IMG/VR virus record: IMGVR_UViG_3300011008_000006
Length of the DNA: 64,000 nt
Direction: 5' to 3' (one strand)
DNA from: a virus
Taxonomy: Duplodnaviria > Heunggongvirae > Uroviricota > Caudoviricetes
This document shows positions 9,879-64,000 of the stretch, piece by piece (positions within the stretch are counted from its first letter, which is position 1; each line of letters opens with the position of its first letter). The notes beneath the pieces were generated by a model that worked only from the letters and a program-made list of their open reading frames with translations, made no database searches and was not told where the DNA came from. The position numbers were made by a program, and so were the translations under genes.

Positions 9879-9941
9879 TTGTTACCTCAATTATTTATAA
9901 TATTAAAATCAACATTTTCAAACAATTATATGTTTCCAATT

Positions 9942-10637: not shown

Positions 10638-10690
10638 ATACAAGCACCTCCTGATTTCCTTCTATCAGAAAGTAATCTCACCTAGTCCTT

Positions 10691-17668: not shown

Positions 17669-17690
17669 AAGGGAGGAGGTCCTCCCTTTT
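17669..17690 (-). terminator. rho-independent terminator after the adenine deaminase / permease operon
   Basis: GGGAGGA-GG-TCCTCCC hairpin. On the minus strand it is followed by TTTTATTT. Confidence 0.55.
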
Positions 17691-19468: not shown

Positions 19469-20809
19469 TTAAGCAATAAACTGTAGGCAACATAGAATTG
19501 TAATTACAATTGTAAACCAGCCGGGTGATTTTTCACGACTATCAGTAAATAGATAACGAGCCCAGTGTGTTAGACAATAAGTCACTAGACCAAGTGCAAT
19601 AGCATTAGCTAATCCACCAAAAATTGATACAATTAGCATAACGCCAACTGGGAACCATTCTACACTCTTAAAATCTACATCTTTCAATGTTTGCATCATT
19701 GAAATACCGATAAGAATAAGAGCAGGGGCTGTCGCCGCGGTAGGAACCATTAAGAATAATGGCGCAAATAGCATTGACAAGAAGAAACAAATTGAGGTAG
19801 TAATTGCAGTTAAACCAGTGCGGCCACCTGCTTCTACACCAGAGGCAGATTCAACATACGTTGTAATTGTTGTTAAACCAGTTAAAGCGCCAGCAACTGT
19901 CGCGCAACTATCTACTAAGAAAATACGCCCAATAGCTGGAAGATTACCATTTTCATCTAACATTCCTGCTTTACCTGCTACGCCAAGAGCAGTACCTAAA
20001 GTAGAAAAGAAGTCAGACATAAAGAACATTAGCATAAAAGTAAATAATGCTGGTCTTAATGCTCCTAAAATATCAAGCTTAAATGCTACGTCTCCAATAT
20101 TAGAAAGAGCATTTGTAGTGATAATTGAAGAAGGAATACTTACTTGTCCCATACAAATTCCGATTATTGTAATTAAAATAATTGAAATAAGTAATGCGCC
20201 ACGAATATGATATGTTTTTCCTTTAATTCTAATTCGTAAGAAATATAGAATTAATGTAATTGCTAATCCAATCCAAGAAAGTAGTACTGATGGATCAGAA
20301 AAATTTAGATTAAGAGCAAAAGAAGAGCCGCTTACATTAATCATTCCTGCATTAGCAAGAGATAGACGAATTAAGAAAGCACCAACTGATGCACCAACAC
20401 CAATTTTTAAAACTTTAGGAATTACTTCTACTACTTTTTCACGCACTTTAAATACACTTAGGAGGACGAAGATTGTACCTGAAATAAATACAATACCTAA
20501 TCCTTGTTGCCAAGTACAAATACCTTGCGCTACTAGTGTGTAAGCTAAAATAGCGTTAGTGCCCATACCAGGAGCAAGTGCGAATGGCATTTTAGCATAC
20601 AATCCCATTGCTAGTGTTGAAAGACCTGACATTAGAGCGGTCATTAACATAACGCCTGTGCCATTCATTCCTGCCGCAACCATCATATTGGCTTGAACAA
20701 TTAGGATATATGCCATAGTTGCGAATGTAACTACACCAGCAAGTATTTCTGTTCCAATACTTGAACTGCGTTCTTTTACATGAAAATGGCGTTCAATAAA
20801 TTCACTCAT
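19469..20809 (-). CDS. purine (adenine/guanine/hypoxanthine) permease, AzgA/PbuG-like NCS2 family
   Basis: Multi-TM protein; N-terminal region SIGTEILAGVVTFATMAYILIVQANM is AzgA-like. Confidence 0.7.
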   Translation of the reverse strand: MSEFIERHFHVKERSSSIGTEILAGVVTFATMAYILIVQANMMVAAGMNGTGVMLMTALMSGLSTLAMGLYAKMPFALAPGMGTNAILAYTLVAQGICTWQQGLGIVFISGTIFVLLSVFKVREKVVEVIPKVLKIGVGASVGAFLIRLSLANAGMINVSGSSFALNLNFSDPSVLLSWIGLAITLILYFLRIRIKGKTYHIRGALLISIILITIIGICMGQVSIPSSIITTNALSNIGDVAFKLDILGALRPALFTFMLMFFMSDFFSTLGTALGVAGKAGMLDENGNLPAIGRIFLVDSCATVAGALTGLTTITTYVESASGVEAGGRTGLTAITTSICFFLSMLFAPLFLMVPTAATAPALILIGISMMQTLKDVDFKSVEWFPVGVMLIVSIFGGLANAIALGLVTYCLTHWARYLFTDSREKSPGWFTIVITILCCLQFIA

Positions 20810-20852: not shown

Positions 20853-22190
20853 TTATAAATCTTCTTTTTCTGGGTAAACAATTTTAATAGGTTCATCTAT
20901 TTTTATTTTTTCTTCTTTTAAAATAAGATTTAAAATAATACCAATAATAATTGCAAGACAAATACCAGTAATATTAAATGAACCAGAATTAATTGCTAAT
21001 CCAGAGGTGCCAATCATTAGCATAACTGCAAACATCCACATAGTTTTTTGATTGTCAAAATCAATTGATGTTTTCTTTAAGAATTTGATGGCAGAAGCAC
21101 CAATCATACCATAACAGCAAATACTCGCGCCAGCGAATACAGCATTAGGTAGTGCAAGAATAAAACTACTAAATGGCCCAAAGAAGCCAAGAATAATTAG
21201 TTCAATAGCGGCAAGTAAGGTAACATAAACACTCGCGCACTTACTAATTAGAATTGTAGATAGATTTTCTGTATAGGTAGTATTAGGTTGGGCGCCAATA
21301 ATAGTACCGATAAATGAACCAAAGCCATCACCAATTAAAGTACGATGAAGTCCTGGATCAGTTAGGAAGTCACGCTCACAAATATTAGAAGCATTAATTA
21401 CATCACCTAAATGTTCTGCTAAGGCTCCAAGAGCAACTAAGCTGAAACTAATTAAAATTTGAGGGACAACACTCCAATCAAAATTTGTGAATGAAACGTG
21501 CATAAAAGCAAAGTCAGGAATAACAAATAGCTTCATATTCTGGAAGTGAGATAAATCTACTAAATTCTGGATACCACATAGTGCAAGAATAATACTTACA
21601 ATATACCCACCTAGTACGCCAAATAGAATAGGCCATCGCTTCATTAATCCTTTACCATAGAAAGCGCATAATAGTACAAGTATCATTGTAAGGAACATAA
21701 TACCAATACCAAGTAGAGAATATTCACCATTGATTTGTGCGTATGTTGGAATAAAGAAGCCGAGTTGTATTGAAATAATTAAAATAATTGCGCCTGACAT
21801 TACAGGTGTAATTAATTTTGTAATCCAATCAACACCAAATTTCTTTACTAAGAGTGCGGCAAGACTATAAATAATTGCTACTGTTAAGCCGCCAATCATA
21901 ACACCTAAGAAATTCTTTTCTACTGGGCCAGCCAGAGCAATCGCACCAATTACCGCAGAGACTGTTGCACCACTATTAGAAATAACAAGTGGCGCGCGAA
22001 ATTTTGTTATACATAAGAAAAATATTGTTGAGACACCTGCCGCGACAAGACCGGCAGTAAGATTTGTGCCACAAATAAGGGCAATAAGTAATGTCGCTGT
22101 AATACAAGAGAACATTACTTGTAGAGAATAGCCAAGCATTTCTTTTATTGTGTTTGGTTTTTCATTAATACGATAGGTTAAATTACTCAT
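20853..22190 (-). CDS. nucleobase:cation symporter (NCS2-family permease)
   Basis: Multi-TM protein. Start re-assigned to MSNLT (ATG 22188-22190, RBS AAGGAGA). Confidence 0.6.
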   Translation of the reverse strand: MSNLTYRINEKPNTIKEMLGYSLQVMFSCITATLLIALICGTNLTAGLVAAGVSTIFFLCITKFRAPLVISNSGATVSAVIGAIALAGPVEKNFLGVMIGGLTVAIIYSLAALLVKKFGVDWITKLITPVMSGAIILIISIQLGFFIPTYAQINGEYSLLGIGIMFLTMILVLLCAFYGKGLMKRWPILFGVLGGYIVSIILALCGIQNLVDLSHFQNMKLFVIPDFAFMHVSFTNFDWSVVPQILISFSLVALGALAEHLGDVINASNICERDFLTDPGLHRTLIGDGFGSFIGTIIGAQPNTTYTENLSTILISKCASVYVTLLAAIELIILGFFGPFSSFILALPNAVFAGASICCYGMIGASAIKFLKKTSIDFDNQKTMWMFAVMLMIGTSGLAINSGSFNITGICLAIIIGIILNLILKEEKIKIDEPIKIVYPEKEDL

Positions 22191-22539
22191 TTTCATTCTC
22201 CTTTTCAAAATATTTGCCCCAATGATTACACCAATCTGGGACAATAACTGCATTTATTTTATTTAATTCTGGAACACAAATTATTGGGTTAGTATAAATT
22301 TTACCTATAAGACCAATATCTTTTGCATCTTTTTCATCTAAATTTTTATAATAAATATCATTATTTATAGATTCATCAATAATAGAAGCATTGAATAATT
22401 TAGTTGATAATTTTACGCAGAAGCCAACAGAACCATATATAATACAACCAATGCCGTATTGATTTCTTATATATCCTATAATATGTTTTATTTTTTCTTC
22501 ATCAACATTATTTAATATAAAAGAAGTAGGTTTATTCAT
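22183..22539 (-). CDS. hypothetical protein
   Basis: 118 aa ORF. Confidence 0.3.
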   Translation of the reverse strand: MNKPTSFILNNVDEEKIKHIIGYIRNQYGIGCIIYGSVGFCVKLSTKLFNASIIDESINNDIYYKNLDEKDAKDIGLIGKIYTNPIICVPELNKINAVIVPDWCNHWGKYFEKENENE

Positions 22540-28433: not shown

Positions 28434-30380
28434 TTAATCAGGGCTAGATAATAAATTTTCTAAGAGATTCATAAAATGTACTAAAAATTTCATTTTTATT
28501 TTAGTAGAATTTAAAGCTGTTTGTGCAGTTTCTGTCCAAGTATCTATAGAATATGTTGTAGGCTTATTTACGTAGCCATAAATTTCTGTTGTTATACCTT
28601 GTGTAGTTATTTCATCTTCAATTCTATTAAAATTTTTATAAAGATCATCGTAAGTTAATTTTAATACATATGATAGAGGATAATAACCATTATTAACAGA
28701 AAATAAATGAATTTGATGTACATTTGTATCAATATTTTTTGAAGTATATTTTAAAGCATCTTGTACAATGTTTATCTAGCTATCAAATAATAAAATACCA
28801 GCAAAAATAGCTAAATAATTTTCTAATTGGTTTTTTTGATTTTTAGCTACCATATTTGGTCCACTATTTATAATTGCAGCAGTTAGCCATTTTTTATCAA
28901 TTAATTTAATACTTCCTGCGTTAGTTAAGGCTTCAATTTTATTTAACTAATCATCTAGTTTTGCTCCAAGAGAACCACCATGTACTCCATGAGACTGTGA
29001 ACTTCCTTCTTGTCTAGCATAAAGAGAAAGGTAATTTTTTGTTGAATCTTCAATCAAGAAGCATTGGGCTAACGTATTATAACTTTGCGATATTTCCTAT
29101 AATATTTTATCAATTTCTTTACAAGTTTCTCTCCAATTATTAGCCTAATCTTGATAATATTGTGTTGTATTAGTATTACGAAGATGATTAATTAAATCAT
29201 CAATTTTTTTTATAATAGCTTCAATTTTTTTTAACAATTGAGAATTATTATTATTTCCTGTTATAGGAGATAAATAATCAGTATCAATAGCTAAAAATCC
29301 AATTATATTATCTGGTTTAGCCCCAGTAGCTCCAGTATTTCTTGAAGTTAATGCTCCAGCCATTTCAAATGTTAGCAATGATTGAATTTCTGCAAGATCA
29401 TTAGGGTTTGAAATAATACGAAAAGCTTTTTCAGGAACAGTATATTTTTGTAAATTAGCCCATAAAATATCTACTAATTGATTACTATCTTCTATTAATT
29501 CTCCTTGAGAATTAAGCCATTGATTGGCGGAAATGCTATTATTATTTTTTTTAGGAGTAATATGATATGTTTGCATAAGGTTTCTTTGGGTCCAAGGCTA
29601 TTTTTTCGTTCGTTCAATTAGATTATTAATCTGAATAGTTAAGTTTTCATCTAAAATTTCATCTAATTTTTCTATTGTTAATGTAGTATTGCCACCCTCT
29701 CTTCGAGTTATATCAATTTTAGAAAAATAGACTGACATGATAATCTATGATATTTCTATAATTAGAGCCATTAGCTAATCACGATTAAAATCAAGTTTTT
29801 TATTTGTAATAGTAAATAAAGAATTTTTAAAGCGGTTTACAATTTCAGTAATAATTTTACGGGCATTAGTATTATTAATTGGTTCTTCTTGTAATTTTAT
29901 TAATAAATCTTTTAAAAAAGAAGAAGTTCTTTTTATATTATCAATATTATAATAAGTTCTTGTTTTATCTGCGGCTTGAGCATAATTTTCTGAGTTAGCT
30001 TGTAAACGAGCTAACTCATTTTGTAGGTCTGTTAAACCAATGTTTCCAATTTTTAAATTCTATTGAATTTCTTTAACAAAATGTTCCCAATTATCTTCTA
30101 AAGAAGGAATTTCTATATTTAAAATATCTTTTGTTTCACCCTTTAGATAATTTAAAAAAGCTTCTTCTTTACGTCTTTCAGACAAAATTATCTATTGTAA
30201 AAACATAAGAGCATCATTAATAGAATTTGTATTTGTTTCTGGGGAAATCATATCAGTTAAATTTGTTGAAAATTCTTTTGCTATAATATTTAATATTTCA
30301 TCATCTAAATCATCAAAATAAACATATGGTGTTAATGGTTCAAAGATATTTTCTGGGTATGCATTACGGTTTAAAGCCAT
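28434..30380 (-). CDS. large TAG-rich hypothetical protein (about 648 aa), possibly virion-associated
   Basis: ORFs 30192..30380 and 29145..29576 plus unannotated stretches share one frame (high coordinate congruent to 2 mod 3) across at least 10 TAGs, down to TAA at 28434-28436. Confidence 0.4.
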
Positions 30381-30442
30381 CTATATCACCAACCAAAAAA
30401 GACAAGCAATGCTTGTCTTGTTATATTCTATATATATAAGTA

Positions 30443-31345
30443 TTATTCTTCTTCAGAAATTATTTTATATTCTTCAATAACCTTAATTTCTCCTTCTTCT
30501 TTTCTTACAGTAGGGTCATCAAATCCAATAACTTTCATAGTAAGTACATCAAGTACAAATGCTCTTCCAGTAAACGCCGCGGCAGTATCCATATCAATTT
30601 TTTTGCCACCGCGTTTATCTTTTGCACCCATCATATCTCCCCAACAAGCAGGATGAATAGATGCTAATGGTTTATTATGGCTGCCATACGCTTTGTCAGG
30701 TAAATATATTGTAGGAGTATGTCCATGTACACAAATTCTTCCGGTCTTCCACCCCAAAGGAATAAATGTACGGTTCCAAAGAAGAGAATATTCAGCAGTA
30801 TAATGAATGTACATATTATTATATTCTGCATTTGCTACTTCTTCAAAAATATTATATGTAGCACCAGCATGACAGAAATCTACATTTTCATATGAAAATG
30901 TATATGGAAGAATACGGAGTTTATCAATAATATCTTCATCCGCACCATTTACTAGCCAATCAATTAGAGTAATGTCGCCGCCGTTAGCACAATGTAAATT
31001 CACATCTGGATTACTTTGAAATTGATGAATAAATATAGTTGCTTCTTCTTTAGTATAATTATGAAGTTTATTATATTTTTCATCACTACTCGCGTGGTAG
31101 CCAATAATAGCATCACAAGCATCAATAAACATTTGTTCATGATTGCCCATTAAATAAATAATTTGAGGGTCAGAAAGAAGATGTTGCATAATTTGATACC
31201 CATCTGGCCCACGATCAATAGCGTCGCCAAGAAATACAACACAACATTCTGGATCTTGTTGTTTGCAATAATTAATAATAGTTTCATATAATCTTAATTG
31301 TCCATGAATATCACCAAAAGTATATATATTATGCATCTTTCTCAT
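30443..31345 (-). CDS. Ser/Thr protein phosphatase (calcineurin-like metallophosphoesterase, lambda-PPase/ApaH-like)
   Basis: GDIHG, GDAIDRGPD and GNHE motifs. Confidence 0.75.
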   Translation of the reverse strand: MRKMHNIYTFGDIHGQLRLYETIINYCKQQDPECCVVFLGDAIDRGPDGYQIMQHLLSDPQIIYLMGNHEQMFIDACDAIIGYHASSDEKYNKLHNYTKEEATIFIHQFQSNPDVNLHCANGGDITLIDWLVNGADEDIIDKLRILPYTFSYENVDFCHAGATYNIFEEVANAEYNNMYIHYTAEYSLLWNRTFIPLGWKTGRICVHGHTPTIYLPDKAYGSHNKPLASIHPACWGDMMGAKDKRGGKKIDMDTAAAFTGRAFVLDVLTMKVIGFDDPTVRKEEGEIKVIEEYKIISEEE

Positions 31346-36007: not shown

Positions 36008-37369
36008 TTAAGTTAATTCTTGTGCCTCTTCAATATCAGGAGCAGTAGCTTCATCCTTCGCAATACCTTCCAGTACTTTAAAAGAGAAGTTCTTATGCTT
36101 ATATACAGCAAAGTTAGAACGGTTCAAGATACGAGCGACAACACCTTCGCGTACATGGGTTTTACCAATTGGGTCAGGACCGTCAAAGTATTCTTCTACG
36201 CGACGAAGTACATATTCACCTGGATTTACAGGAATATAATCACCATGAAGGCCAGGCACAGAGTCAGGCACGAAGAAGCGACAAAATTCAGGTACAACAT
36301 TTACGCCCATTTGTTCGCAACGCTCACGAATTTGGTCAGGAGAATATTCAACTACATCGCCATCTTCGTTTACCATAGTCATACGATAAACATATACTTC
36401 ACAACAAGGTGCTTCTATTGCAGTTTCTTCCCAAGGTCCATGCTGATCACAGCCATATGCAAAAGTAGTAGTGTCTCCATATAGCTTAGTAAATTCTGGA
36501 TCTTTTACTTTGTTATTGGCAACCTGGCTCATAATAGGTGCTCCATCTGGGCCCTGGAAACCTACAATTTCGTAATATACTACTTCACCCTTATGAAGTT
36601 TTCCTTCAAACTTTGCTGCCATTGCATGACGGAAATCATCACTTTCATAGAAACCGCCATTGCGTATTCCATCAAGTACCACGCGACGAGTACCAGTAAT
36701 ATAGCCATATTCCATATAGTCCTTACCATGACGATGGAACAATTTATCAAGCCAAGTGCGCTTAGTATGAAGTAAAGGTAAATAGCCAGTACGCCCTGAA
36801 GTTCCGTGCATTTTTAGAGTGAGTTGTACTAGGTCACCAGGCTTAAATACATCTAGATTATAAGCGAGCTGCGCAGTATCTACATGTTCGTAGAAGGTAG
36901 GCGCAATATTAGCTTTTGCCTTTTTAGTGGCATTAGCTCCGTGACTGCGAGAATAAGTATTCGCGCGAGGAATATATTTCTGACAAATTAGTTCACCATT
37001 AACAGTATCAATAGTATCTCCAACCTTTAGATCAGAAATCTTACAAAAATCAGCAAGAGAAGTCAAAGGCATAAAAAGACCGTCAGATTTTTCGCCGCGA
37101 AGCTTTAGTGCCTTAATGTTGCGCTTATCGGGGTCAAGATAACCGCCACAAGGTTTACCATTTTCATCTTTACGCCGCACTAGGTCATTTACAGCGCAAT
37201 AACGCTCGGAGAGTTGACCGTCTACAGGGAAATAAATTCCCTTATCTCCAATATGAGTATCAAGACTTACAATAGTATCATTACCAAAGAAGGTAGCAAT
37301 TTGCAGTCTATCAGCATTAGAATGTTTACGAAGTTCTTTTACTTCAACAATATATCCACAATAAGGCAT
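36008..37369 (-). CDS. RNA ligase (Rnl2-like KxHG nucleotidyltransferase) fused to an N-terminal tRNA-binding (Trbp111/EMAP-like) domain
   Basis: N-terminal HSNADRLQIA...GDKG OB-type tRNA-binding motif, then motif I LKMHGTSGR; 453 aa. Confidence 0.5.
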   Translation of the reverse strand: MPYCGYIVEVKELRKHSNADRLQIATFFGNDTIVSLDTHIGDKGIYFPVDGQLSERYCAVNDLVRRKDENGKPCGGYLDPDKRNIKALKLRGEKSDGLFMPLTSLADFCKISDLKVGDTIDTVNGELICQKYIPRANTYSRSHGANATKKAKANIAPTFYEHVDTAQLAYNLDVFKPGDLVQLTLKMHGTSGRTGYLPLLHTKRTWLDKLFHRHGKDYMEYGYITGTRRVVLDGIRNGGFYESDDFRHAMAAKFEGKLHKGEVVYYEIVGFQGPDGAPIMSQVANNKVKDPEFTKLYGDTTTFAYGCDQHGPWEETAIEAPCCEVYVYRMTMVNEDGDVVEYSPDQIRERCEQMGVNVVPEFCRFFVPDSVPGLHGDYIPVNPGEYVLRRVEEYFDGPDPIGKTHVREGVVARILNRSNFAVYKHKNFSFKVLEGIAKDEATAPDIEEAQELT

Positions 37370-41591: not shown

Positions 41592-43094
41592 TTATTTAAT
41601 GTTAGCGTATCTAGGCTCATTTAATTTTTCAAACATTAAAGCCATTCCGTCTTTACCAGAAAGAATAGTCTTTACCATATTCATGGAAAAACCGCTTACA
41701 TAGGAAAATTTATCTCCGATAGCAGGAATATTCTCGTGACGAGCATCAAGATTCCAGAAGATAATACGAGGTGTAGTGTATCCATGCGCTTTCCACTTTT
41801 TCATCTGCGCTTCAATTAGAGTATTGATATTATCTGTTGTGCTAAGTGGTTTGCGGATACGACGACCCCACATATCATAAGCCCATTCATTAGAAGTAAG
41901 AGTATGATTAAACTCCATATCACTGAAGATATATAGAGTCTTAGGCATATCTTCTGGTTTTACTTTTTTCTGAATGGCAGTATGAAGTAGCAAATCAAAT
42001 ACGGATTCAATATTAGTAGAATTATTCCAATTTGCATTTCTAGCGCGCCAGAATTTATCATAAATATCAATACCTTTAAACTCAACAAGTTCAGGATTAT
42101 CTGAGAAGGTGATGAAGTGATTATGGAATGGGCCCTTACCACGTTCAGCAATATAAGCGCCCATAGATACCGCAGCGTTTAATGGTTGACCGTACATACT
42201 ACCACTAACGTCAACAATAGCAATACCGGGCTCTTCGCGGCCAGCATAATAGTCTTCAAGATTATCCCAATACTTTTGCCAAGTAAGACGCTCAATTTCA
42301 GTTGTGCGCCAAGAATTAGAAAAAATTTGATTAGCAATATCAACAGGATTTAGTACCTTAGCATTTACTTTAGTAGTCTTATCAGACATAAATGCCTTGT
42401 ACTGTTCTTTGATAATATCTCTCTTCGCAAAAGCATTCTTATAAATTAGACCAGCGCGAGAAGGAATTTTATCAAATTTAATTTCATCCCAACGATTTTG
42501 AGACATTAAGGTTTCGACAATGTTGATGCGGTTGCGGAGTAGAGATAGCATCTTACGGTATGCACGAGGAGTTAGGTCAAGAGCTTCACGAGTTTTCTGG
42601 CCTAATCTGCGGCTTTCATAAGAAGAAGTATTTTCACTCTTACACCACTTTGCAAGCAAAGAAGGAGTGTTGCATTCAACGTCAAGAATTAACTGCTTGC
42701 AAATAAACTCAAACATTTCCTTTTCAACAGGAGTATCTACTAGGGAATATAGGTCATCCCAACGTCCCATTTCAGGGATAAATTTCATGTTGCGAATTAC
42801 TGCATCTTTATTTTCGCGCGCGAGCCATTTAATAACTATACGGAAGAAACGACGTTCGCCTGCGCCGCCGCGGCAGTCACGAAGATAGAATAAACACTTT
42901 AGCGCGTATTCTGGATTTTCTTCATATGCATTTTTAAACATTAGAATAACGTCATCGTCAGAACGATTACGCATAGAACCGCCCATACCAAACATATCTA
43001 ATAGCGCGGATTTAGTAGTCTTATGAGTGATAGCACCATTTTCGGTGTGAGTATAATTAAAATTGTCCTTTAACCCATTTAGTAATGTATTCAT
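41592..43094 (-). CDS. DUF2828-like / Ro60(TROVE)-like protein with C-terminal vWA domain
   Basis: YLRDCRGGAGERRFF, typical of DUF2828, plus MIDAS IVDVSGSM; 500 aa. Confidence 0.45.
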   Translation of the reverse strand: MNTLLNGLKDNFNYTHTENGAITHKTTKSALLDMFGMGGSMRNRSDDDVILMFKNAYEENPEYALKCLFYLRDCRGGAGERRFFRIVIKWLARENKDAVIRNMKFIPEMGRWDDLYSLVDTPVEKEMFEFICKQLILDVECNTPSLLAKWCKSENTSSYESRRLGQKTREALDLTPRAYRKMLSLLRNRINIVETLMSQNRWDEIKFDKIPSRAGLIYKNAFAKRDIIKEQYKAFMSDKTTKVNAKVLNPVDIANQIFSNSWRTTEIERLTWQKYWDNLEDYYAGREEPGIAIVDVSGSMYGQPLNAAVSMGAYIAERGKGPFHNHFITFSDNPELVEFKGIDIYDKFWRARNANWNNSTNIESVFDLLLHTAIQKKVKPEDMPKTLYIFSDMEFNHTLTSNEWAYDMWGRRIRKPLSTTDNINTLIEAQMKKWKAHGYTTPRIIFWNLDARHENIPAIGDKFSYVSGFSMNMVKTILSGKDGMALMFEKLNEPRYANIK

Positions 43095-43143: not shown

Positions 43144-43743
43144 TTATAGTGGGTAATTGTAAAGTTCTTTCATAGGAACTCCAAATTTTTGCATTTCATT
43201 CCATCTATTTCGAATATCGGTAATTGCTTCATCAATATGCACTGGTGTACAATTATGACTATCCATACCAACATGGTACATAAATGGATTATCTGGCTGA
43301 AGCCAATTTTTTTGTTGATGAGTGTGCCCGTGCATATTAATTACATGCTGTGAAAAATGTTTATCATCATAATTTGCAGTTAATGTTGGATAATGCGAAA
43401 GATAAATAGAATATTTTCCATATTTAAACATATGTGCATATCCAAGTGTAATAATATTTGGGCACTCTGTATGAATGAGCATTTGCCGCGATGGCGAATC
43501 ATGGTTGCCCCAAATGATATTAATTGTTCCATTAAGACTCTTTAGACATTCTAGACCAATTTTATTATTTGTAAGCATAATATCACCAAGATGAATTACT
43601 GTATCATCTGGCTTTACCACCTTATTCCATCTTTCAATGATAGCTTCATTCATTTCTTCTACACTTTGAAAACCACGTGGTTCCCATAGGAACATGGGCT
43701 GATGCGCGAAATGAGTGTCGCTGGTGAGAAAAATTTCGCCCAT
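43144..43743 (-). CDS. calcineurin-like metallophosphoesterase
   Basis: SDTHF, GDI, GNHD and GHTH motifs. Confidence 0.7.
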   Translation of the reverse strand: MGEIFLTSDTHFAHQPMFLWEPRGFQSVEEMNEAIIERWNKVVKPDDTVIHLGDIMLTNNKIGLECLKSLNGTINIIWGNHDSPSRQMLIHTECPNIITLGYAHMFKYGKYSIYLSHYPTLTANYDDKHFSQHVINMHGHTHQQKNWLQPDNPFMYHVGMDSHNCTPVHIDEAITDIRNRWNEMQKFGVPMKELYNYPL

Positions 43744-44225
43744 TAAACTTCTCCTTCAATAAACCACTTACCTATTTCGCGTGAATCTTCTTTATCTGGA
43801 ATAGTAAGTTTCGCGCGCATATCACGAATTACATCTTCTGGAACATTTGCATGCCCAACACGATTTTTATTATGTTCAATGCATACTTCCGCGGAGGCAA
43901 GAAATACAATATAAATAATATTATAATCTGTATAATATTTATCAATCGCATTTGTAAGTTTCTTACGGGCCGCAGTATTTAAATGAGTAGCATCAGCAAC
44001 TGCATTATAGTTATTTTTTAAAGCGGTAACAATTTCATTAATAAAATCATTATAAACTTCATTTTCAAAATCAAAATAATGCGCATTTGGATTTTTATCA
44101 AGATAACGGAATCGAATAGTGTCACGAGATACCCAAACAATATGTCCATTATTAGAAAAATTTGCCGCGAAAGTTGACTTGCCGCACCCGGGGGCACCAA
44201 TTAAAATATATAAAGTAGATTTCAT
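43743..44225 (-). CDS. P-loop polynucleotide-kinase-like kinase (Pnk kinase-domain-like)
   Basis: LIGAPGCGKST resembles T4 Pnk TIGCPGSGKST; start taken at MKSTLY. Confidence 0.5.
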   Translation of the reverse strand: MKSTLYILIGAPGCGKSTFAANFSNNGHIVWVSRDTIRFRYLDKNPNAHYFDFENEVYNDFINEIVTALKNNYNAVADATHLNTAARKKLTNAIDKYYTDYNIIYIVFLASAEVCIEHNKNRVGHANVPEDVIRDMRAKLTIPDKEDSREIGKWFIEGEV

Positions 44226-44226
44226 T

Positions 44227-44505
44227 TTATTCCTCTTCTTGATAATTAAGTTTATCAATTTGTTTTCTATCTCTCATGCTCCAATTGGTATTAGGAAGCC
44301 AAGAATTTTTAATATGTTTATTATTTGTTTTTTCAGCACATAGAGGACAAGAACAATGAATTTTATTTTTTGAATATTGATGTAAATTATCATACCAGTC
44401 ATGATGATAGGTACCCGTATCAAGCGCACGATCAAGATTTCGTTTACGAATTGCTTTTTTCCAATCATTATGGCGTTTTTCCGCGGTGTCTCTCATAATA
44501 ATCAC
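44227..44505 (-). CDS. hypothetical protein (Cys/His pairs)
   Basis: 92 aa ORF with CSCPLC. Confidence 0.3.
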   Translation of the reverse strand: MIIMRDTAEKRHNDWKKAIRKRNLDRALDTGTYHHDWYDNLHQYSKNKIHCSCPLCAEKTNNKHIKNSWLPNTNWSMRDRKQIDKLNYQEEE

Positions 44506-44950: not shown

Positions 44951-45017
44951 TGAGAGCGAGACAACTTGCTGTAATGGCCTAAAGTGTTTTAGATGGTGTT
45001 ATCGCTTCACCAACTAG

Positions 45018-45164: not shown

Positions 45165-45238
45165 TGGCAGCCGGAGAAAGAATTGAACTTTCACAAGCGG
45201 AGTCAAAGTCCGCTGCCCTTCCATTAGGCTATCCGGCT
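45165..45238 (-). tRNA. tRNA-Gln (anticodon TTG), CCA encoded
   Basis: Acceptor AGCCGGA/TCCGGCT, discriminator G73, loop CTTTGAC, T-arm GAAAG-TTCAATT-CTTTC. Confidence 0.8.
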
Positions 45239-45246
45239 ATATTAAG

Positions 45247-45321
45247 TGGGCCAGGGGAGAGTTGAACTCCCAAAACCTAGATTCTTAGTCTAGTACCTAT
45301 GCCAAATTCGGTTACTCGCCC
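45247..45321 (-). tRNA. type-I tRNA with anticodon AAG (identity unclear)
   Basis: Anticodon stem CTAGA/TCTAG with loop CTAAGAA; T-arm GGGAG-TTCAACT-CTCCC; acceptor GGGCGAG/CTGGCCC has one mismatch. Confidence 0.5.
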
Positions 45322-49905: not shown

Positions 49906-49981
49906 TGGAGCCTACGGTCAGATTTGAACTGACTACCTCTTCTTTACCATAGAAGTGCTCTACCAATTGAGCTACGAAGGC
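49906..49981 (-). tRNA. tRNA-Thr (anticodon GGT), CCA encoded
   Basis: Acceptor GCCTTCG/CGTAGGC (1 mismatch), D-arm GCTC-AATTGGTA-GAGC, anticodon stem CTTCT/AGAAG, loop ATGGTAA, T-arm GTCAG-TTCAAAT-CTGAC. Confidence 0.7.
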
Positions 49982-51053: not shown

Positions 51054-51142
51054 ATAAAACTAGACCATTTAATTTGAGAAAGGATTTGTAGCAAAAATAT
51101 TTTCTTTAATTCATTAAATAATTGCTGTAATGGTCTAAACTA

Positions 51143-51237
51143 TGGCAACCCCTCTGGGAGTCGAACCCAGAACAACCTGCTTCAGAGGCATATCACGGTT
51201 TTAGAGACCGGTGCTCTACCAATTGAGCTAAGGGGCT
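51143..51237 (-). tRNA. amber-suppressor tRNA (anticodon CTA, reads UAG); type-II-like with about 24 nt variable region; G73; CCA encoded
   Basis: Minus-strand sequence AGCCCCT-TA-GCTC-AATTGGTA-GAGC-A-CCGGT-CTCTAAA-ACCGT-[GATATGCCTCTGAAGCAGGTTGTT]-CTGGG-TTCGACT-CCCAG-AGGGGTT-G-CCA. The anticodon loop is CTCTAAA, so positions 34-36 read CUA. Confidence 0.7.
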
Positions 51238-51327
51238 ATAATAAATAACACGACGATTTAAAATTAGCTACATAATTTAAAAGATTATTGCTTATATTAT
51301 TATAAAAATTTGCTGTAATCGTCGTAA

Positions 51328-51403
51328 TGGTCTCCCGTGAAGGATTTGAACCCTCATTAATAGATCCGTAGTCTATTGTCCTAGTCCATTAGACGAACGA
51401 GAG
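51328..51403 (-). tRNA. tRNA-Arg (anticodon ACG), CCA encoded
   Basis: Acceptor CTCTCGT/ACGGGAG, D-arm GTCT/GGAC, anticodon stem ATAGA/TCTAT, loop CTACGGA, T-arm GAGGG-TTCAAAT-CCTTC. Confidence 0.8.
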
Positions 51404-53390: not shown

Positions 53391-53394
53391 TAAT

Positions 53395-53467
53395 GTCCAA
53401 TAAAGGATTTGAACCTTCAAAAACATGGTCCTTAGCCATGCGCGTCTGCCGTTGCGCCAATTGGACA
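53395..53467 (-). tRNA. type-I tRNA with anticodon AAG (second copy; identity unclear)
   Basis: Acceptor GTCCAAT/ATTGGAC, D-arm GCGC/ACGC, anticodon stem CATGG/CCATG, loop CTAAGGA, T-arm GAAGG-TTCAAAT-CCTTT. Confidence 0.5.
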
Positions 53468-55626: not shown

Positions 55627-55655
55627 ATTATAACATAAATTTATATCTATGTCAA
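55627..55655 (-). promoter_or_regulatory. consensus promoter driving the tRNA-Asn ... tRNA-Leu unit
   Basis: attata 55627-55632; tgtcaa 55650-55655. Confidence 0.6.
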
Positions 55656-55799
55656 ATAATAATCTGGTAAATTTTCAAATTGTTTTAAATTAGAAATAAA
55701 GCGTTTTACATTTATATTTCTTATCCCTGCTCGTAATAGATGCTTCATTTTCTAACTAATAGCAATACCTAACGCATCTTCACTTTTACTTTCATATTT

Positions 55800-57323
55800 C
55801 TAATATACTTCAAAATAAAATTGCCTAATATAATACCAATTATCATATAATAAATCAGGCCGTTTTTTCGCGCATAATAGAAAACTTTCATATAATCCAA
55901 CAAATAATACATTTAATTCATTTAATAATACATATATATTTATATTATTTTTTTCTGCATTATCTATTACATGTTTAGCATTAGCCGCTAATCCAGCAAT
56001 TTGTTTTGTATAATAATATTCTTTTCCACCTGCATGAGTAATAGAATTAGCATCATAAGTATAGAAATAAATTGGATATTCATAAAATACTTTATGTTCT
56101 GTAGTATCATACATCTCAATATGATTTAAAATCATATCACAAGTATGATTAAAACCTATATCTTCATTAGAGTAAGAAGATTCTTTACAAAAATCAATAT
56201 CATATAATTCTAAAAATTCTCGCTTATAAATATGCCCGTGCATTAATGGATTCCAATCTGTACTAAATTGTTTATTTTCTTCATTATACCATTGATATAA
56301 ATATATATCTGGCATTGTATTATTTTTTATATCATTTAATATTCTATCAAGAACTTCATTTGAATATAAATAATCACCAGTATCAATAAACATAAGATAT
56401 GGATTACTAGTATTTTTTATACCTATTTCACGAGCAACACCAGGGCCAGAATTTTTCTTTAATGTTATCCAATTTACATATGGAAATAATGAAAATATTT
56501 TCTTCTTATAAGAAATTGGAGAAGCATCATCAATAATATTAATTGTAATTTCTTCTCGATTTGGAATACTCTTTAAAGTAGTAATTAATCCCTATTCATT
56601 ATTATAAGTCGGAATTATAATATCTAAATTAAAATTATCTTCTTTATTTCTTACTAATTCCATTTTTTCATAATAAGAAATAAGCGGCAAGTCTTGCCAT
56701 TTTTTTATTGCAGCATAATGAATAATTTTTCTATGTGAGGCTTTCTATGTATAATTATTTATATTATAATCTGCTGGCAAATTATAAATATAATTTTGAC
56801 ATAAAATATTAATTGCATCTTGCTCTGGATAACCTAATTTTATTGAATTAAGAAGATAAATAATTTCATCATCTTTTTTATCTTCTCTCATTTTTTTTAA
56901 ATTAAATAAAGCAACGCCAACATTAATATAAGTAAAGTCATCATATGTTTTATCTGGTTCAGGAACTGCCGCGACATAATAATTAGATATATCTATATCC
57001 CATAAATTAGATATATTCTCATTTATAATTGTATCAACATCTAATGATAAAATTGTATCTAACTATGGAAAAATTTTAGTAAAGGCTGCTTTTATTAGTG
57101 CCATATAAGTCCAAGAACTTTTATAATTTGGGCCATTCTTTCTAAAATAATTCTAATTACTTATATTTATACATTCTATTCCCTATGGTACTTCATAAGG
57201 AAAAATATCATCTTCAATAAGAAAATAAATTTTTTCTACATTAGAATGAATAAGTAATGATTTCGCCGCAATTACCATATTTTTATATAAATTTCTCGTA
57301 CCACAATAAACTGCTGCTCTCAT
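55800..57323 (-). CDS. two-domain glycosyltransferase (GT8-like plus GT2-like); 5 in-frame TAGs
   Basis: ORF 55800..56393 extends upstream through 5 TAGs to ATG 57321-57323 (RBS GGTGAT). DXD motifs LDVDTII (GT8-like) and IIDDAS (GT2-like). Confidence 0.5.
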
Positions 57324-57334
57324 TATATCACCAC

Positions 57335-58279
57335 TTATTCATAAGGGACATTAATATAATCTAATACTTCTTTTAATCCTAGGCCGCCTTCTTCCCAAGG
57401 ACGCATACAATATTCCCAAATTTTTGGATGTGATACCTTTAATTGTTGAAAACGATTTGGACATTTTTCACAATGTGCACCAAAACCACAAAAAATACAA
57501 CCAGTTCTTTTAATACCTGTTGTAGTCCAATTACCTTTTTTATCTTTTATAATATCACCATATAAAGGACAATATGGAATATTATATTTTACTAAATATT
57601 CTAAAATATCATTATCAGTCCAGAAAGATAATGGCTTACATGTAGGTTTATCGCTATCAAATAAATTACAACCGCTACGCATCCATTCATTACGACGAGC
57701 AATAGATTCAGATGCTAATGTTCCAAGAATTGGAAAACGACCAGTTTCTTTTGAATAGTGATGATTTGGTTGTTTTTTCATTACATCACAACAATAATCA
57801 CTAATTTTAAATGGTGCTTGAACTAAGAAATTCCATTTACCATCACCAAAACCAAATATTTTACTATCATATTCACCGCTCAAAAATTTTGCGCGTGCGG
57901 AATTAGGATTTCGTTTTGCAGTAGCAACATAGCCAGCAATTTTTTTACTTACAATTGGATAGCCAAATTCTTCAATTACTTGTCTAAACGTTTTCTTAGG
58001 TCTAATAACTTCTGTATTTTCGTGTGATTTTACAAATTCTTTTAGTTCTGGATATTCTAAGCCTGTGTCAATAAAAACAGCAGGAGTATCGGGAAATACA
58101 CGTCTTACTAAATCAAGTAAAACTGTACTATCTTTTCCACCGCTAAAAGCAACAAAAATCTTTCCATTAAAATGGTCACCAAATTCAAGAATCCTTGTCT
58201 AAGAAACTTGAATTTTTCTTTCTAGCGGCCATGCCTACATTTCTTTTAAATCAGTTGCGGTATATTTGTTTTCTGCCAT
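57335..58279 (-). CDS. PAPS-reductase-family PP-loop ATPase (CysH/DndC-like); 2 in-frame TAGs
   Basis: ORF 57335..57883 extends upstream through 2 TAGs to ATG 58277-58279. FSGGKDS PP-loop; C-terminal Cys cluster. Confidence 0.5.
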
Positions 58280-58893: not shown

Positions 58894-60431
58894 CTATAAT
58901 ACCCACATCCGGGAACGATCCGGAATTTTCACCTTGAAAGGGTGACGAACTAACCAATTATTCGATGCGGGCATAATTCCAGTGTTGGCGCACCGGAATA
59001 GCGAAACGCCGCCGACTAGTTATTATTACGCCAATAATAATAACAAACTTTTTTTAAACTTTTAATCTTTGTTTTTCATCGACTTTGCTTCTCACATTTT
59101 TACACAGATACGTGTCAACTGTTTGCTCTTCATTGGAATCGAACCAATCCTTCCGGGCGTGCTTTCCATTACACTATCAGAGCATAACTGCGCGTTTTGA
59201 TAACCCAGACGCGAAGTCACTCTACTGGGGAGGGAAATTCATCCACTCATACTGCGTTCAACTGTTGATCAAGCAATCGTAATTATGGGTTAGCTTTCAC
59301 CCATACCCCATATCCGTCGGGTCGCATTTACCTACACATTGTGACGGGTGCGGAGGGCCCTTCCACCGCTTTTCTGATTTATCGACAATCAGTAAGGACT
59401 TCACCCATTACTTTCCTTCCATCCCGTTTTTCGGCATCCTTTTTAAGTGTAAGGTCACTAATTTTCCCATCCCATTTTTTGAAAGGCTTAGTTTGGAAAA
59501 TCTAACGTCCTGTCGTTGCCTTTTATAACCATTTCACAGAATGGACTCACTTATTTATACTAGGTCTCTCCTAGATTTAATTGGCTGTTCTTCAAACTCC
59601 ATTTAGCCCATTCTTCACTTTGCTTGTATAGCTGCTTGCAAGCCAGCTTTGCTTTTCAAAAGCTAATACATTGAGCATTTGGGCACCATACTATGCGCTT
59701 CCCGTCATCCCTGGCGGAGCCATGTCCATAGCGTTATGTAATGAGAATCTCGCATTACATCCATACAACTAGTTGTGAAAACGATTCATTTCCACTTTTT
59801 CGATAACTAGTAATTACTTTGGCTATCAGGTTGCCATCCCAATCTAACGATGATTGACGACCTGTGAATAAGGTTTTAACAGGTTTTACTTACCGCACCT
59901 GTACCATCGGTAGCTTACGCCGCACTTATTGGTGTTTTGGAACCATACGCTCTCCAGTTGCCACCTTTGAGCGGGGCTAGACTCTAAGTGCATCAGGGTT
60001 TTCTGACATCATTGTGCCTCTACCTTTTCGCCCTAACATCACTACGTCGATGTTTCTCATCTTGAACGGATACCTTCTAACGGTCTGGTATCAACCGTTG
60101 GTCGCAGATAATGGAGTTGGACCATTTCCTCAAGCGTTATGAGCGCCGCGGCTTAACCGTTTGCCCTATCTGCGATAAAGAGAAAATATTTTCTCTTTAC
60201 GATACTTACAGCATAATTTTAAAAAAAGTCAAGGCACATAAAATTCTTTTGCATTACCATACTATGCTACTTGCCCAATGGGGCGAGACGAGATTTGAAC
60301 TCGCGATTCAAAGATTATCTTTGATTTTGCTGTATGTGCCTTTAAATGGAAAGTACGAGAATCGAACTCGTGTCCGCTGCGTGCAAAGCAGCAATTCTAG
60401 CCCCTAAACTAACTCCCCATCTCATATATCT

Positions 60432-62198: not shown

Positions 62199-64000
62199 TC
62201 AACCTCCTATTTTACTTTGCCATAAAGCATAATTATTATTATGGATAGAATTTTTAGTAGGAATATAAACAAGACGCGCGCCAAAAGGTGCAGCATAATA
62301 ACTTGGGTTTTTATCGCAAGCATAATAAAATATACCATCTTTTTGCTGGAATAACCAATTACCACCATGAGCAACATAATTAACACCATTTAGATTTGTA
62401 GTAACCCAAATGCTATCTCCTACTGGTGTTGCGCTATTGGCCCCACTTGCTTCTGCGGGTAAAAATACCCAGTCATATTTTTCATTACCATAACCCATAC
62501 CAGAAATCCAATCACTATTATTGGGGAGACAGAAGCCTACACTTTTATAGTCGTCTGTAATAGTAGTTGAATAATTAGAATTTGTACAAATATATGGAAT
62601 ACCGCCCTATTGAACACCATTACCTGAAATATTTATATTGCCAATGAATTTCCAAATATTACCAAATAGATTTTCTTCACCGCGATAAGAGATACAACGC
62701 TTACCATTTGTATTATATGTAGTATTTAACATTGTATTTACACTACTTTCTGCCGCGCCAGAGTTATTACCCAATGCCGCGGTAGAACCTGTATTATTTG
62801 CATAGTTTCTATCATAAGCATTATTAATACTACATACGCCGTTTTCAATTGCATTTTGAAGATTTAAAGTACCATATTCTATAATACTTAACATCTAGTC
62901 AATACTACGAGTTTGCATTGTTTCAATGTGCCAACCTTCACCGCGATTTCTAGCGAGTTGTTCTGCTTTATCAATTGTTAAAGCATTATTTTTACCACTA
63001 ATAGGTTGAACATTTGCAATTGAAGATAATTTATCTTCTGAAAAATTAATTCCACTTACGTCTGTAGTAAGATATGTATTCGCAGAAGTATCATAAGCAG
63101 AGCCTTCGTAAGCAGATAATAGAATATATTCTAATTCATTTCCTGCATTATCAATAAAAGCTGGATGAAGTTTAAATCCTGACTAAGCAATTGGAGAAAT
63201 AATTAATGATTCTTTATGAATAACTTTACCCATTAAGCCATTGGTAGTATTAATTGGAACGCGCTGATAATAAAATTTTGGTTGATAAACCATTACCTAC
63301 CCATTAGAGCCATCTTCTCTATAATTATTATCTCCATAGAAAGCAGTAATAGTACCATCATCTGCTACATTACAACGCATACGTTTATACATTAAGTAAT
63401 CAGTAAAATTAGTATTAGATGTCGCTTCTTGTGTGCGCCCAACAGATTTATTTTCATAATCAATATTTAAACCTACTGCATCTCGCGCCTAATATGTACC
63501 AGTACGTAGAAGTAGTTCAATTAAGGCTTGTTCTGTAGTGGTACTTGCAGTAATATTCCCATCAGAACCAATAACTACCATTTGGCCTGCATTATTAGAA
63601 CCAAGATTAGAGGTTCCACCACTATTGCCGCCGCTAGAATTAATTTGAGATTGTAAATTATTTTTTACATTTTCAACATAAGTCTTAATGGCTTTCTAAG
63701 TCATAGAGCCATCTTCATTGGTTCCTTCACTAGTATAATTTTTTTCTACTATATAATTAGTAGTAGTACCATTTTTTGTTACGCTTGCTTGTCTAATTTT
63801 TGCTGCGGAAGTATTTGCGTCAGTAACCGTTACTGTCCCACCAGCATTAGCAATTTGACTTTCTAACGTAGTTGTTCTTGATTTTAAATCAGCAACATCT
63901 TCAACTGTTGTTCCAAGTTGTTCAGCCACAACAGCGGTTGCCGCGGCCTCAAAATCTGCTTTAATTTCTGCTAATTCACCTGCGGCCGCGCTTGCTGCTT
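62199..64000 (-). CDS. tail-fiber / receptor-binding-like protein, partial (5' end lies beyond the window); many in-frame TAGs
   Basis: ORFs 62199..62498, 62607..62894 and 63696..63929 plus the stretches between them join in one frame across at least 6 TAGs. Ser/Thr/Asn/Gly-rich; stop TGA at 62199-62201. Confidence 0.45.

Follow-up and report, generated by a model that had tools for sequence, protein, structure and literature searches.

The 64,000-nucleotide (nt) stretch of tailed-phage DNA analyzed here (IMG/VR virus record IMGVR_UViG_3300011008_000006, Caudoviricetes; hereafter the window) encodes on its minus strand, within a tRNA cluster, an amber suppressor tRNA with two candidate anticodon-type hairpins. 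One of them, in the canonical position, bears the anticodon CUA, and the other, in the variable region, presents the glutamine anticodon CUG in its loop.

The suppressor tRNA gene and its second arm

ARAGORN places the anticodon cta at position 34 of a 95-nt tRNA occupying exactly 51143–51237 on the minus strand. The Rfam tRNA family RF00005 matches 51146–51237 (55.4 bits against a gathering score of 29, E = 3e-9, model positions 1–71, full length), aligning CUCUAAA as the anticodon loop with CUA at positions 34–36 and leaving an insertion of about 20 nt in the variable region. With a cloverleaf above the Rfam gathering threshold, the element at 51143–51237 is a tRNA gene, and its sequence is AGCCCCU-UA-GCUC-AAUUGGUA-GAGC-A-CCGGU-CUCUAAA-ACCGU-[24 nt]-CUGGG-UUCGACU-CCCAG-AGGGGUU-G-CCA (Table 1). 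An earlier sequence-only reading of this DNA had proposed a CUA tRNA here. Both tRNA finders agree with it, its segmentation equals the window sequence base for base, and its further observations were borne out, namely a variable region of 24 nt, a D arm shared with tRNA-Thr(GGT), and a G73 and acceptor end (A1-U72, G2.U71, C3-G70) resembling those of the phage's ordinary tRNA-Gln(UUG), whose second pair is G2-C71. That tRNA-Gln serves as the local reference for glutamine identity.

The shared D arm carries little information: residues 8–27 (UAGCUCAAUUGGUAGAGCAC) are the same as in tRNA-Thr(GGU) (49906–49981), and the 4-base-pair (bp) D stem, GCUC/GAGC, which closes an 8-nt loop, is generic consensus. 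Arm 1, the true anticodon arm, follows the D stem after the canonical single nucleotide, and its 27-43 position is a C.U mismatch, leaving four Watson-Crick pairs in the stem. The minimum-free-energy fold of the isolated sequence (ViennaRNA) differs from the cloverleaf (z = -0.9), which is common among tRNAs and is no argument against the covariance-model call. The name tRNA-Pyl given by ARAGORN is merely its label for the anticodon CUA. The tRNA-Pyl fold is compact, with a 6-bp anticodon stem, a 3-nt variable loop and a small D loop; the window tRNA has an anticodon stem of 4–5 bp, a variable region of 24 nt and a D loop of 8 nt, and no pyl-like gene was found among the window open reading frames (ORFs) examined.

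Related genes were collected by two scans of IMG/VR, the first constraining the anticodon arm only and the second requiring a CUCUAAA loop, a long spacer and a T loop, with the variable region unconstrained in both. Family counts based on the second scan, and on the opal scan described below, are counts among the matches listed, and those for long-arm CUA tRNAs rest on ARAGORN CUA calls only. At least 76 unique long-arm CUA tRNAs are present in IMG/VR, and 68 of these contain YUG(A/C). A strict test, requiring a 7-nt loop with central YUG and at least two closing pairs, picks out 67 of the 76 among the matches listed, compared with 0/49 Leu, 0/22 Tyr, 5/67 Ser and 2/73 other long-arm tRNAs from the same loci. 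The consensus loop is N-U-YUG-A-N, with U at the position equivalent to U33 in 56/68 and A at that of A37 in 65/68. Its commonest heptamers among the matches listed, CUCUGAA (27), UUCUGAG (11) and CUUUGAA (9), also occur as true anticodon loops in the phage tRNA-Gln genes of these loci, CUCUGAA being the commonest for tRNA-Gln(CUG).

When the arms are anchored on the invariant UG, one register only has consecutive well-paired columns, and it is the one that closes a 7-nt loop, with closing pairs that are Watson-Crick or G.U in 67/68 and 67/68. In this register 86.4% of cells are paired, as against 52.5% in shuffles (0/500 as high), and the covariation score is 0.763, as against 0.176 for shuffles and at most 0.245 for slid controls, with double-sided changes in 51 cells. 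A pentaloop register (CCUC[UGAAG]GAGG) was rejected, having 57.7% of cells paired, a covariation of 0.263 that is no better than its own slides, and 15 double-sided cells; registers with a UGAA tetraloop or a CUGAA loop did not outperform slid controls either. When arm 2 is folded thermodynamically in isolation, the loops obtained are inconsistent. The stem pairs of the window arm in the covarying register are C-G, G-C, U-A, A.G, U.G and A-U, and the arm sequence is identical at two further loci (L012 and L039).

The loop is held constant in a family that is otherwise diverse: among the matches listed, the 68 unique sequences come from 81 loci and use 41 acceptor strands and 19 anticodon stems, with a median identity of 0.70 outside the variable region. 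At the acceptor end, 64/65 have a weak or mismatched 1-72 pair and 53/68 have G73. Judged by this covariation, the 24-nt variable region is a second anticodon-type hairpin with the loop of tRNA-Gln(CUG), not a Ser-type arm. We define the two-arm family by a stop-reading arm 1 nt after the D stem and a second hairpin with a 7-nt loop N-U-[sense anticodon]-A-N, at least two closing pairs and a loop end 8–10 nt from the T stem; the window tRNA, with its loop CUCUGAA, its arm 2 stem and a spacing of 10 nt, belongs to it. The Phass-1 genome (OQ749652) has a two-arm tRNA at 62445–62532 that is annotated just as 'tRNA-Sup-CTA'. A scan of host-genome contigs with a pattern that proved too degenerate gave two true tRNAs among the 120 matches listed, L303, from a Bacillota metagenome-assembled-genome contig, and L350.

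The position of the second arm is also well defined. From the end of the pseudo-anticodon loop to the T stem the family has 9 nt in 53/68, 8 nt in 9 and 10 nt in 3, and the window arm has 10 nt, made up of its 3' strand and the UGUU linker. Ordinary tRNAs have 9–10 nt between the end of the anticodon loop and the T stem, and the variable hairpins of Ser, Leu and Tyr tRNAs end 5–7 nt from it. On the 5' side the spacing is loose, with 3 to 12 nt separating the true anticodon stem from the second loop across the family. Removing arm 1 from the window tRNA in silico leaves a canonical 76-nt tRNA-Gln(CUG), and removing arm 2 leaves a canonical 76-nt tRNA(CUA); across the family, ARAGORN calls a tRNA-Gln after arm 1 deletion in 53/68. 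In effect, a single acceptor, D and T scaffold carries both a tRNA(CUA) and a tRNA-Gln(CUG). The variable region had been described as type-II-like, which holds for its length only, the arm being a look-alike of the Gln anticodon loop 9–10 nt from the T stem. A type II tRNA-Ser would have a Ser-type D arm and, directly adjoining the T stem, a G+C-rich variable stem. The window tRNA has neither: the loop ends 10 nt from the T stem rather than 5–7, and the D arm is generic.

The same geometry bears on whether the gene might instead encode a tRNA-Gln(CUG) that decodes CAG through arm 2, with the CUA hairpin as an insertion at position 26, or, in a variant, whether alternative processing or folding might give both species. 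Deletion of arm 1 does yield a canonical 76-nt tRNA-Gln(CUG), the spacing of arm 2 to the T stem is canonical, and ARAGORN finds no separate tRNA-Gln(CUG) in the window. We nevertheless regard this reading as very unlikely, as ARAGORN and the Rfam covariance model both put CUA in the anticodon position, arm 1, whose stem is the better of the two, lies exactly one nt from the D stem, and a short suppressor at another locus (L001) has an identical CUA arm without arm 2. Moreover, the genome is TAG-recoded and 51143–51237 is the only candidate decoder in the window, and no bacterial mechanism is known that excises such a hairpin. A fold with a sense anticodon had been named beforehand as grounds for abandoning the suppressor call; such a fold is available to the extent that arm 2 presents CUG, but both tRNA finders prefer the CUA arm and the recoded genome needs CUA.

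Several further observations concern these tRNAs and their surroundings. A short Gln-like CUA suppressor of about 75 nt often lies side by side with the two-arm CUA suppressor, a few nt apart, as in Phass-1 (L353, OQ749652; 5908–5979 and 5986–6073) and at L005, L027, L040, L046, L059, L060, L061, L064 and L181. Many phage type I tRNAs (His, Asn, Thr, Lys, Glu) have inserted variable hairpins with GAAA- or GNRA-like loops (L058, L101, L074, L078, L105, L148 and others). At L148 a 92-nt tRNA-Ile(UAU) has an inserted hairpin, GCGC[CAGAUUA]GCGC, that lies 9 nt from the T stem and carries the standard Ile anticodon GAU at its center; a second long-arm tRNA-Ile(UAU), at L043, has CUCACAA in place of the GAU loop. 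The two-arm design may thus extend to sense tRNAs with awkward anticodons, an anecdote from one of two tRNA-Ile(UAU) genes. In the window, a motif CCAUUAC...AUUACAGCAA lies just 3' of three tRNAs, Thr-UGU, the suppressor and Arg-ACG (44966–44977, 51122–51133 and 51310–51330, minus strand), and the two such spacers inspected contain inverted repeats; the motif may be a processing or termination element. Theta ribozymes have been reported beside tRNA-Sup genes, though no Rfam ribozyme family matches next to this suppressor.

Table 1. Parts of the suppressor tRNA, the reference tRNA-Gln and three TAG-containing client genes in the window.
Feature	Coordinates	Strand	Details	Source
Whole suppressor tRNA gene	51143..51237	-	95 nt, CCA encoded	ARAGORN; Rfam RF00005, 55.4 bits
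Acceptor 5' strand	51231..51237	-	AGCCCCU, pairs with AGGGGUU at 51147-51153 (A1-U72, G2.U71, C3-G70 onward)	
D arm	51213..51228	-	GCUC-AAUUGGUA-GAGC, G10 present; followed by single A26 at 51212	
Arm 1 (true anticodon arm)	51195..51211	-	CCGGU-CUCUAAA-ACCGU, C27.U43 mismatch	Rfam alignment, ARAGORN drawing
Anticodon	51202..51204	-	CUA, reads UAG	
Arm 2 (variable arm, putative pseudo-anticodon arm)	51175..51193	-	AUAUGC-CUCUGAA-GCAGGU	Register from family covariation
Pseudo-anticodon	51183..51185	-	CUG (Gln anticodon), center of 7-nt loop CUCUGAA (51181-51187)	
Linker, arm 2 to T stem	51171..51174	-	UGUU	
T arm	51154..51170	-	CUGGG-UUCGACU-CCCAG	
Discriminator and CCA	51143..51146	-	G73, encoded CCA	
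Ordinary tRNA-Gln(UUG)	45165..45238	-	Acceptor end A1-U72, G2-C71, C3-G70, G73; anticodon loop CUUUGAC	
Client gene, tail-fibre-like ORF	62199..63998	-	6 in-frame TAG; runs off window end	
Client gene, GT8+GT2 glycosyltransferase	55641..57338	-	8 in-frame TAG	
Client gene, 672-codon ORF	28434..30452	-	10 in-frame TAG; no family match	

The meaning of TAG and its match to the second loop

Treating TAG as a sense codon increases the cover of the window by non-overlapping ORFs from 0.79 to 0.89. The same treatment of TGA gives 0.84, and taken by itself the increase is weak evidence. Single minus-strand ORFs contain 10, 8, 6 and 5 in-frame TAGs. These codons are located mainly in late-type, accessory and homing-endonuclease genes, and there are none in the genes for topoisomerase II, DnaB, primase and the ligases. 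Related IMG/VR contigs were fetched and compared by tblastn with TAG marked in both query and subject, and homologues were found to align straight across the window TAG positions. Maximum likelihood applied to 202 aligned cells at 26 sites assigns Gln to TAG, ahead of the next amino acids, His and Lys, by 18 log-likelihood (lnL) units with sites weighted equally and by 132 raw. At three conserved TAG sites of the tail-fibre-like ORF the aligned residue is Gln in 9/10, 12/12 and 14/14, with no Trp, and in the reverse direction a subject TAG aligns most often to Q of the window proteins (27 cells). These alignments indicate that TAG means glutamine and that the suppressor almost certainly inserts it, as in published phages using genetic code 15.

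The earlier proposal that this tRNA is the decoder of a recoded TAG is consistent with these results: in-frame TAGs occur in many genes, homologues align through them, and it is the only CUA tRNA among the 29 tRNAs of the window. Its hint of glutamine from the acceptor end agrees with the alignments. The hint of serine, from the long variable arm together with G73, does not, and the corresponding alternative, in which SerRS would recognize the tRNA through these features and TAG would mean Ser, seems to us extremely improbable. The variable region is indeed 24 nt long, G73 is present, and phages do have true CUA suppressors of the Ser type (L018, L219). However, Ser lies 24.5 lnL units per site below Gln and aligns at variable sites only, the arm has a 7-nt Gln-type loop 9–10 nt from the T stem as against 5–7 nt for Ser arms, and L018 and L219 look different, with a GGAGAGA acceptor, a GCCGGAG-type D arm and a G+C-rich variable stem. 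Tryptophan was also considered and rejected as the meaning of TAG in this phage; the 5' half of the tRNA matches phage tRNA-Trp, yet W is never aligned with TAG. Overall similarity of the tRNA body to more than 900 phage tRNAs gave Ile, Arg, Asn and Lys as top scores, a result that is uninformative because the D arm is generic. Codon 86 of a GIY-YIG homing endonuclease (9918–10664, minus strand) is a TAG at which 12/13 homologues have Tyr, not Gln; it may reflect a tolerated Tyr-to-Gln change or a decaying endonuclease gene.

Phages that read TAG as Gln and carry a suppressor tRNA(CUA) include crAss-like, Lak and Phass-1 phages, according to the published accounts (10.1101/2021.08.26.457843; PMC9523058; PMC10607447; PMC10879173), and the text of those papers that was searched does not mention the variable arm or its loop. 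The window phage resembles them in having a CUA tRNA in a tRNA cluster, an AT-rich genome, TAG mostly outside replication genes and TAG aligned with Gln. With its CUA anticodon, its in-frame TAGs aligned across by homologues and the assignment of TAG to Gln, we classify 51143–51237 from these comparisons as the amber suppressor tRNA of a TAG-recoded (code 15) phage. A megablast search of the tRNA region against GenBank phages gave no match, and the window phage differs from the code 15 phages above in having no megablast-level DNA similarity to any phage in GenBank.

Opal suppressors provide a further comparison. A scan of IMG/VR for the loop CUUCAAA, again with the variable region unconstrained, gave 18 non-Sec-like long-arm UCA (TGA) suppressors among the matches listed. 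In 13 of these the second arm contains [G/C]UCCAA, 12 having the full Trp-type loop [G/C]UCCAAA and one GUCCAAG; YUG is present in the second arm of none of the 18, and neither loop occurs in any of nine Sec-like tRNAs. The second arms with the CCA loop mostly have full 5-bp stems and lie 8–10 nt from the T stem. The association of CUA with YUG and of UCA with CCA has a Fisher p of 1.6e-8 over unique sequences, a value inflated by phylogenetic relatedness. That TGA means Trp in recoded phages is established in the literature, and by sequence comparison the pseudo-anticodon thus matches the reassigned amino acid across suppressor classes.

One tRNA combines the two types. The gene at L074 (7800–7892, IMGVR_UViG_3300028805_000058) has a CUA anticodon, an opal-type body and a second arm with the loop GUCCAAA. 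In the lysin gene of the same phage (L474, 10001–10606) the position of the TAG is occupied by W in 79, F in 17, Y in 16 and H in 2 of 120 homologues, and the six Q at this position are gene-caller translations of TAG in close relatives. Such alignments suggest that this phage may read TAG as Trp, and L074 is then an exception that fits the pattern of a loop matching the amino acid.

Possible roles of the second arm

On balance we favor the view, drawn from these sequence patterns, that the pseudo-anticodon arm serves the glutamine-charging machinery as an identity or recruitment element, restoring the G36 signal that is missing from CUA. The CUA arm, in the canonical anticodon position, would read UAG on the ribosome; the pseudo-anticodon arm, together with the weak 1-72 pair, G73 and G10, would supply glutamine identity, above all G36; and the charging machinery of the host, either GlnRS or GluRS with GatCAB, would then load glutamine efficiently and specifically. 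That such an element is needed is plausible: with up to 10 UAGs in one ORF, suppression has to compete efficiently with release factor 1. The identity of E. coli GlnRS substrates is set by a weak 1-72 pair, G73, G2-C71, G3-C70, G10, U35, G36 and A37. Among these the suppressor has A1-U72, G73, G10, U35 and A37; its anticodon has A36, with G36 found only in the CUG of arm 2, and its acceptor has G2.U71 and C3-G70, the latter also found in the ordinary tRNA-Gln(UUG) of the phage. That an aminoacyl-tRNA synthetase reads arm 2, and in what manner, we infer.

E. coli supE is a tRNA-Gln with the anticodon CUA, and su7 (supU) is a tRNA-Trp with CUA that is charged mainly with Gln by GlnRS. The window tRNA is like both in its CUA anticodon, weak 1-72 pair, G73, Trp-like anticodon stem (CCGGU/ACCG) and predicted insertion of Gln. 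They differ, however, in having arisen by a single-base change in the anticodon, in having a 5-nt variable loop and in being poor or ambiguous substrates of GlnRS, whereas the window tRNA adds a complete Gln-type anticodon hairpin. Hairpins that copy a cognate anticodon loop for synthetase binding are found in the thrS mRNA operator and in the tRNA-like structure of turnip yellow mosaic virus, but these act in translational control or viral RNA aminoacylation and not as the second arm of a decoding tRNA. A fifth helix between the anticodon and T arms is also present in type II tRNAs (Ser, Leu and bacterial Tyr) and in allo-tRNAs (PMC5389517), where it is an identity element (SerRS, TyrRS). Type II arms differ in that their recognition depends on shape, length and orientation and not on the sequence of the loop, which does not resemble an anticodon loop (Leu 0/49, Tyr 0/22), and their hairpins lie 5–7 nt from the T stem as against 9 nt in the two-arm family. 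The acceptor/T helix of the window tRNA has the canonical 7/5 arrangement, unlike that of allo-tRNAs, which is 8/4 or 9/3.

The design most like that of the window tRNA is synthetic. Mukai 2020 (PMC7590224) engineered amber suppressors on an allo-tRNA chassis in which the variable arm was swapped for an anticodon stem-loop (GUG for His) to recruit the synthetase, and aminoacylation was raised with a HisRS fused to an extra anticodon-binding domain. The phage tRNAs have the same architecture, and the proposed rationale is the same, but they are natural and widespread, with no dedicated synthetase in view. A full-text literature search, which missed most subscription journals, found no natural pseudo-anticodon arm and this synthetic precedent only; a natural second anticodon arm in many recoded phages is apparently undescribed so far.

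A number of points weigh against a role in charging. The CUA anticodon keeps C34 and U35, which already make it attractive to GlnRS, as su7 and supE illustrate, and UCA suppressors are usually acceptable TrpRS substrates, so that it is not obvious why they would need a CCA arm. In most Gln-type second arms a conserved A.G mismatch follows after only two or three contiguous Watson-Crick pairs. The tip of a variable arm lies away from the anticodon-binding domain when the CCA end is in the active site of a monomeric class I enzyme; action of arm 2 as a tether would be one of two ways past this difficulty. Many phages also have ordinary 72–77-nt CUA suppressors without the arm, in Phass-1 directly adjacent to the two-arm gene, and the arm is therefore not indispensable for suppression. 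In the phage with the L074 tRNA, a DUF285 protein has 13 TAGs at variable positions only, with Tyr and Arg about equally favored. Phage tRNA-CUA species, which may or may not have arm 2, have been reported as substrates of E. coli GlnRS (PMC12636597), and the engineered pseudo-anticodon needed an extra fused domain and had a modest effect (PMC7590224).

The second way, a more specific and more doubtful idea though one we would still entertain, is that the tRNA is two-headed, its two hairpins exchanging places below the D stem, where only one of them can stack at a time. When the sense head is docked (CUG for Gln, CCA for Trp) it would look like an ordinary tRNA-Gln or tRNA-Trp and be charged; with the stop-reading head docked (CUA or UCA) it would decode the stop codon on the ribosome, and it might also decode CAG. 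The idea fits because the junctions are fixed, arm 1 at 1 nt from the D stem and arm 2 at 9–10 nt from the T stem, and either deletion gives a canonical tRNA.

Fixed junctions could also have a historical origin. The second arm might be a relic of an anticodon-arm duplication, or of a fusion between the 5' portion of another tRNA gene and the 3' portion of a tRNA-Gln gene, that is simply tolerated as a long variable arm would be, with charging by Gln resting solely on the acceptor end and C34/U35 as in E. coli supE and su7. Canonical 3' spacing and clean deletion of either arm are what a duplication or fusion predicts, the weak 1-72 pair and G73 are present, and short CUA suppressors without the arm exist, at times next to the long one. 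Neutral decay would be expected of a relic, however, and the loop is instead nearly invariant, with 51 double changes in the stem, while the rest of the molecule is at a median identity of 0.70; the 5' linker has indels of 3–12 nt while the 3' spacing stays at 9 nt; and the UCA suppressors keep a different loop, CCA, that still matches their amino acid. We therefore consider a relic rather improbable.

A little less probable still is that arm 2 is a handle for some partner other than a cognate synthetase, acting on a Trp-like body as an anti-determinant against TrpRS or other synthetases, as a docking point for a factor, of phage or host, that sets the timing of the code switch, or as a substrate or decoy for a modification enzyme or anticodon nuclease. 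The anticodon arm CCGGU-CUC.AAA-ACCG is typical of tRNA-Trp, and the best BLAST matches of the 5' half outside Phass are mycobacteriophage tRNA-Trp genes; class Ic synthetases approach from the side of the variable arm. The RNA ligase, kinase, phosphoesterase and Ro-like protein of the window put tRNA attack and defense in play, and other phage type I tRNAs (His, Asn, Thr, Lys) have inserted variable hairpins with GAAA-type loops. Yet a steric anti-determinant needs neither a conserved loop sequence nor a 7-nt loop nor a fixed spacing, the loop tracks the reassigned amino acid (YUG with CUA, CCA with UCA), which points to amino-acid-specific machinery, and neither a synthetase-like gene nor an obvious arm-binding gene is present among the window ORFs examined.

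If the arm does serve as an identity element for charging, it would be a new kind of tRNA identity element. Borges et al. described the cellular mechanism of code change as 'a final question'. A suppressor necessarily loses the anticodon on which GlnRS and TrpRS rely, and a second arm matched to the reassigned amino acid would be a simple answer to this problem. The loop of the extra arm could then be used in annotation to predict the meaning of a recoded stop codon, as for L074, where a CUA anticodon and a CCA arm accompany TAG at a Trp-conserved site, and the tRNAs would offer a ready-made design for orthogonal suppressors in genetic-code expansion, an idea tried only synthetically so far. 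Were the two-headed mechanism correct, an 'identity anticodon' would be separated from the 'decoding anticodon', giving phages a general and portable route to reassign stop codons where synthetases insist on the anticodon.

The phage genome around the tRNA array

The window is 33% G+C, with nearly all genes on the minus strand. One of its proteins is 100% identical to a protein of a 179,680-bp contig. Relatives at 70–90% identity, dozens of them, are found on contigs of 135–185 kb, and the nearest cellular homologues are in Lachnospiraceae and Oscillospiraceae at about 51%; the closest relatives of the phage are metagenomic contigs of 130–185 kb. The source is a large AT-rich phage of roughly 180 kb, and its host is probably a member of the Clostridia. 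The window encodes a primase, DnaB, both topoisomerase II subunits, and DNA and RNA ligases, as well as homing endonucleases, the GT8+GT2 glycosyltransferase and purine-metabolism genes. Among the last is a short adenylosuccinate-synthetase-like gene (358 aa, PF00709; 33499–34575, minus strand) of a type known as PurZ in phages whose DNA contains 2-aminoadenine. At 11 kb from it are genes for an adenine deaminase and for two permeases of xanthine/uracil type (17689–19458, 19469–20809 and 20853–22253); one permease is labeled 'tail protein' in PHROGs, and its tblastn matches are transporters.

Just upstream of the tRNA array are genes for an RNA ligase (36008–37369), a metallophosphoesterase (43144–43755), a P-loop kinase of AAA_33/KTI12-like type (43743–44273) and a Ro/TROVE-like protein (41592–43094), all on the minus strand. 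The last contains DUF2828 and DUF7788 and belongs to phrog_850, 'RNA-binding protein'. Together these genes look like a tRNA repair or RNA quality-control set.

The array itself has further unusual members. ARAGORN finds 28 tRNAs on the minus strand, and Rfam adds one that ARAGORN missed, with the anticodon CAU (60102–60174, minus strand; 43.5 bits), giving 29 in the window. Two tRNAs of 75–76 nt (45246–45321 and 53393–53467, minus strand) are labeled tRNA-Leu and have the rare anticodon AAG; their variable loops are of 5 nt, without the long arm expected of a bacterial tRNA-Leu. Between tRNA genes of the array lies a full-length ROOL RNA (RF03087; 52380–52964, minus strand), which scores 317.7 bits against a gathering score of 99.1.

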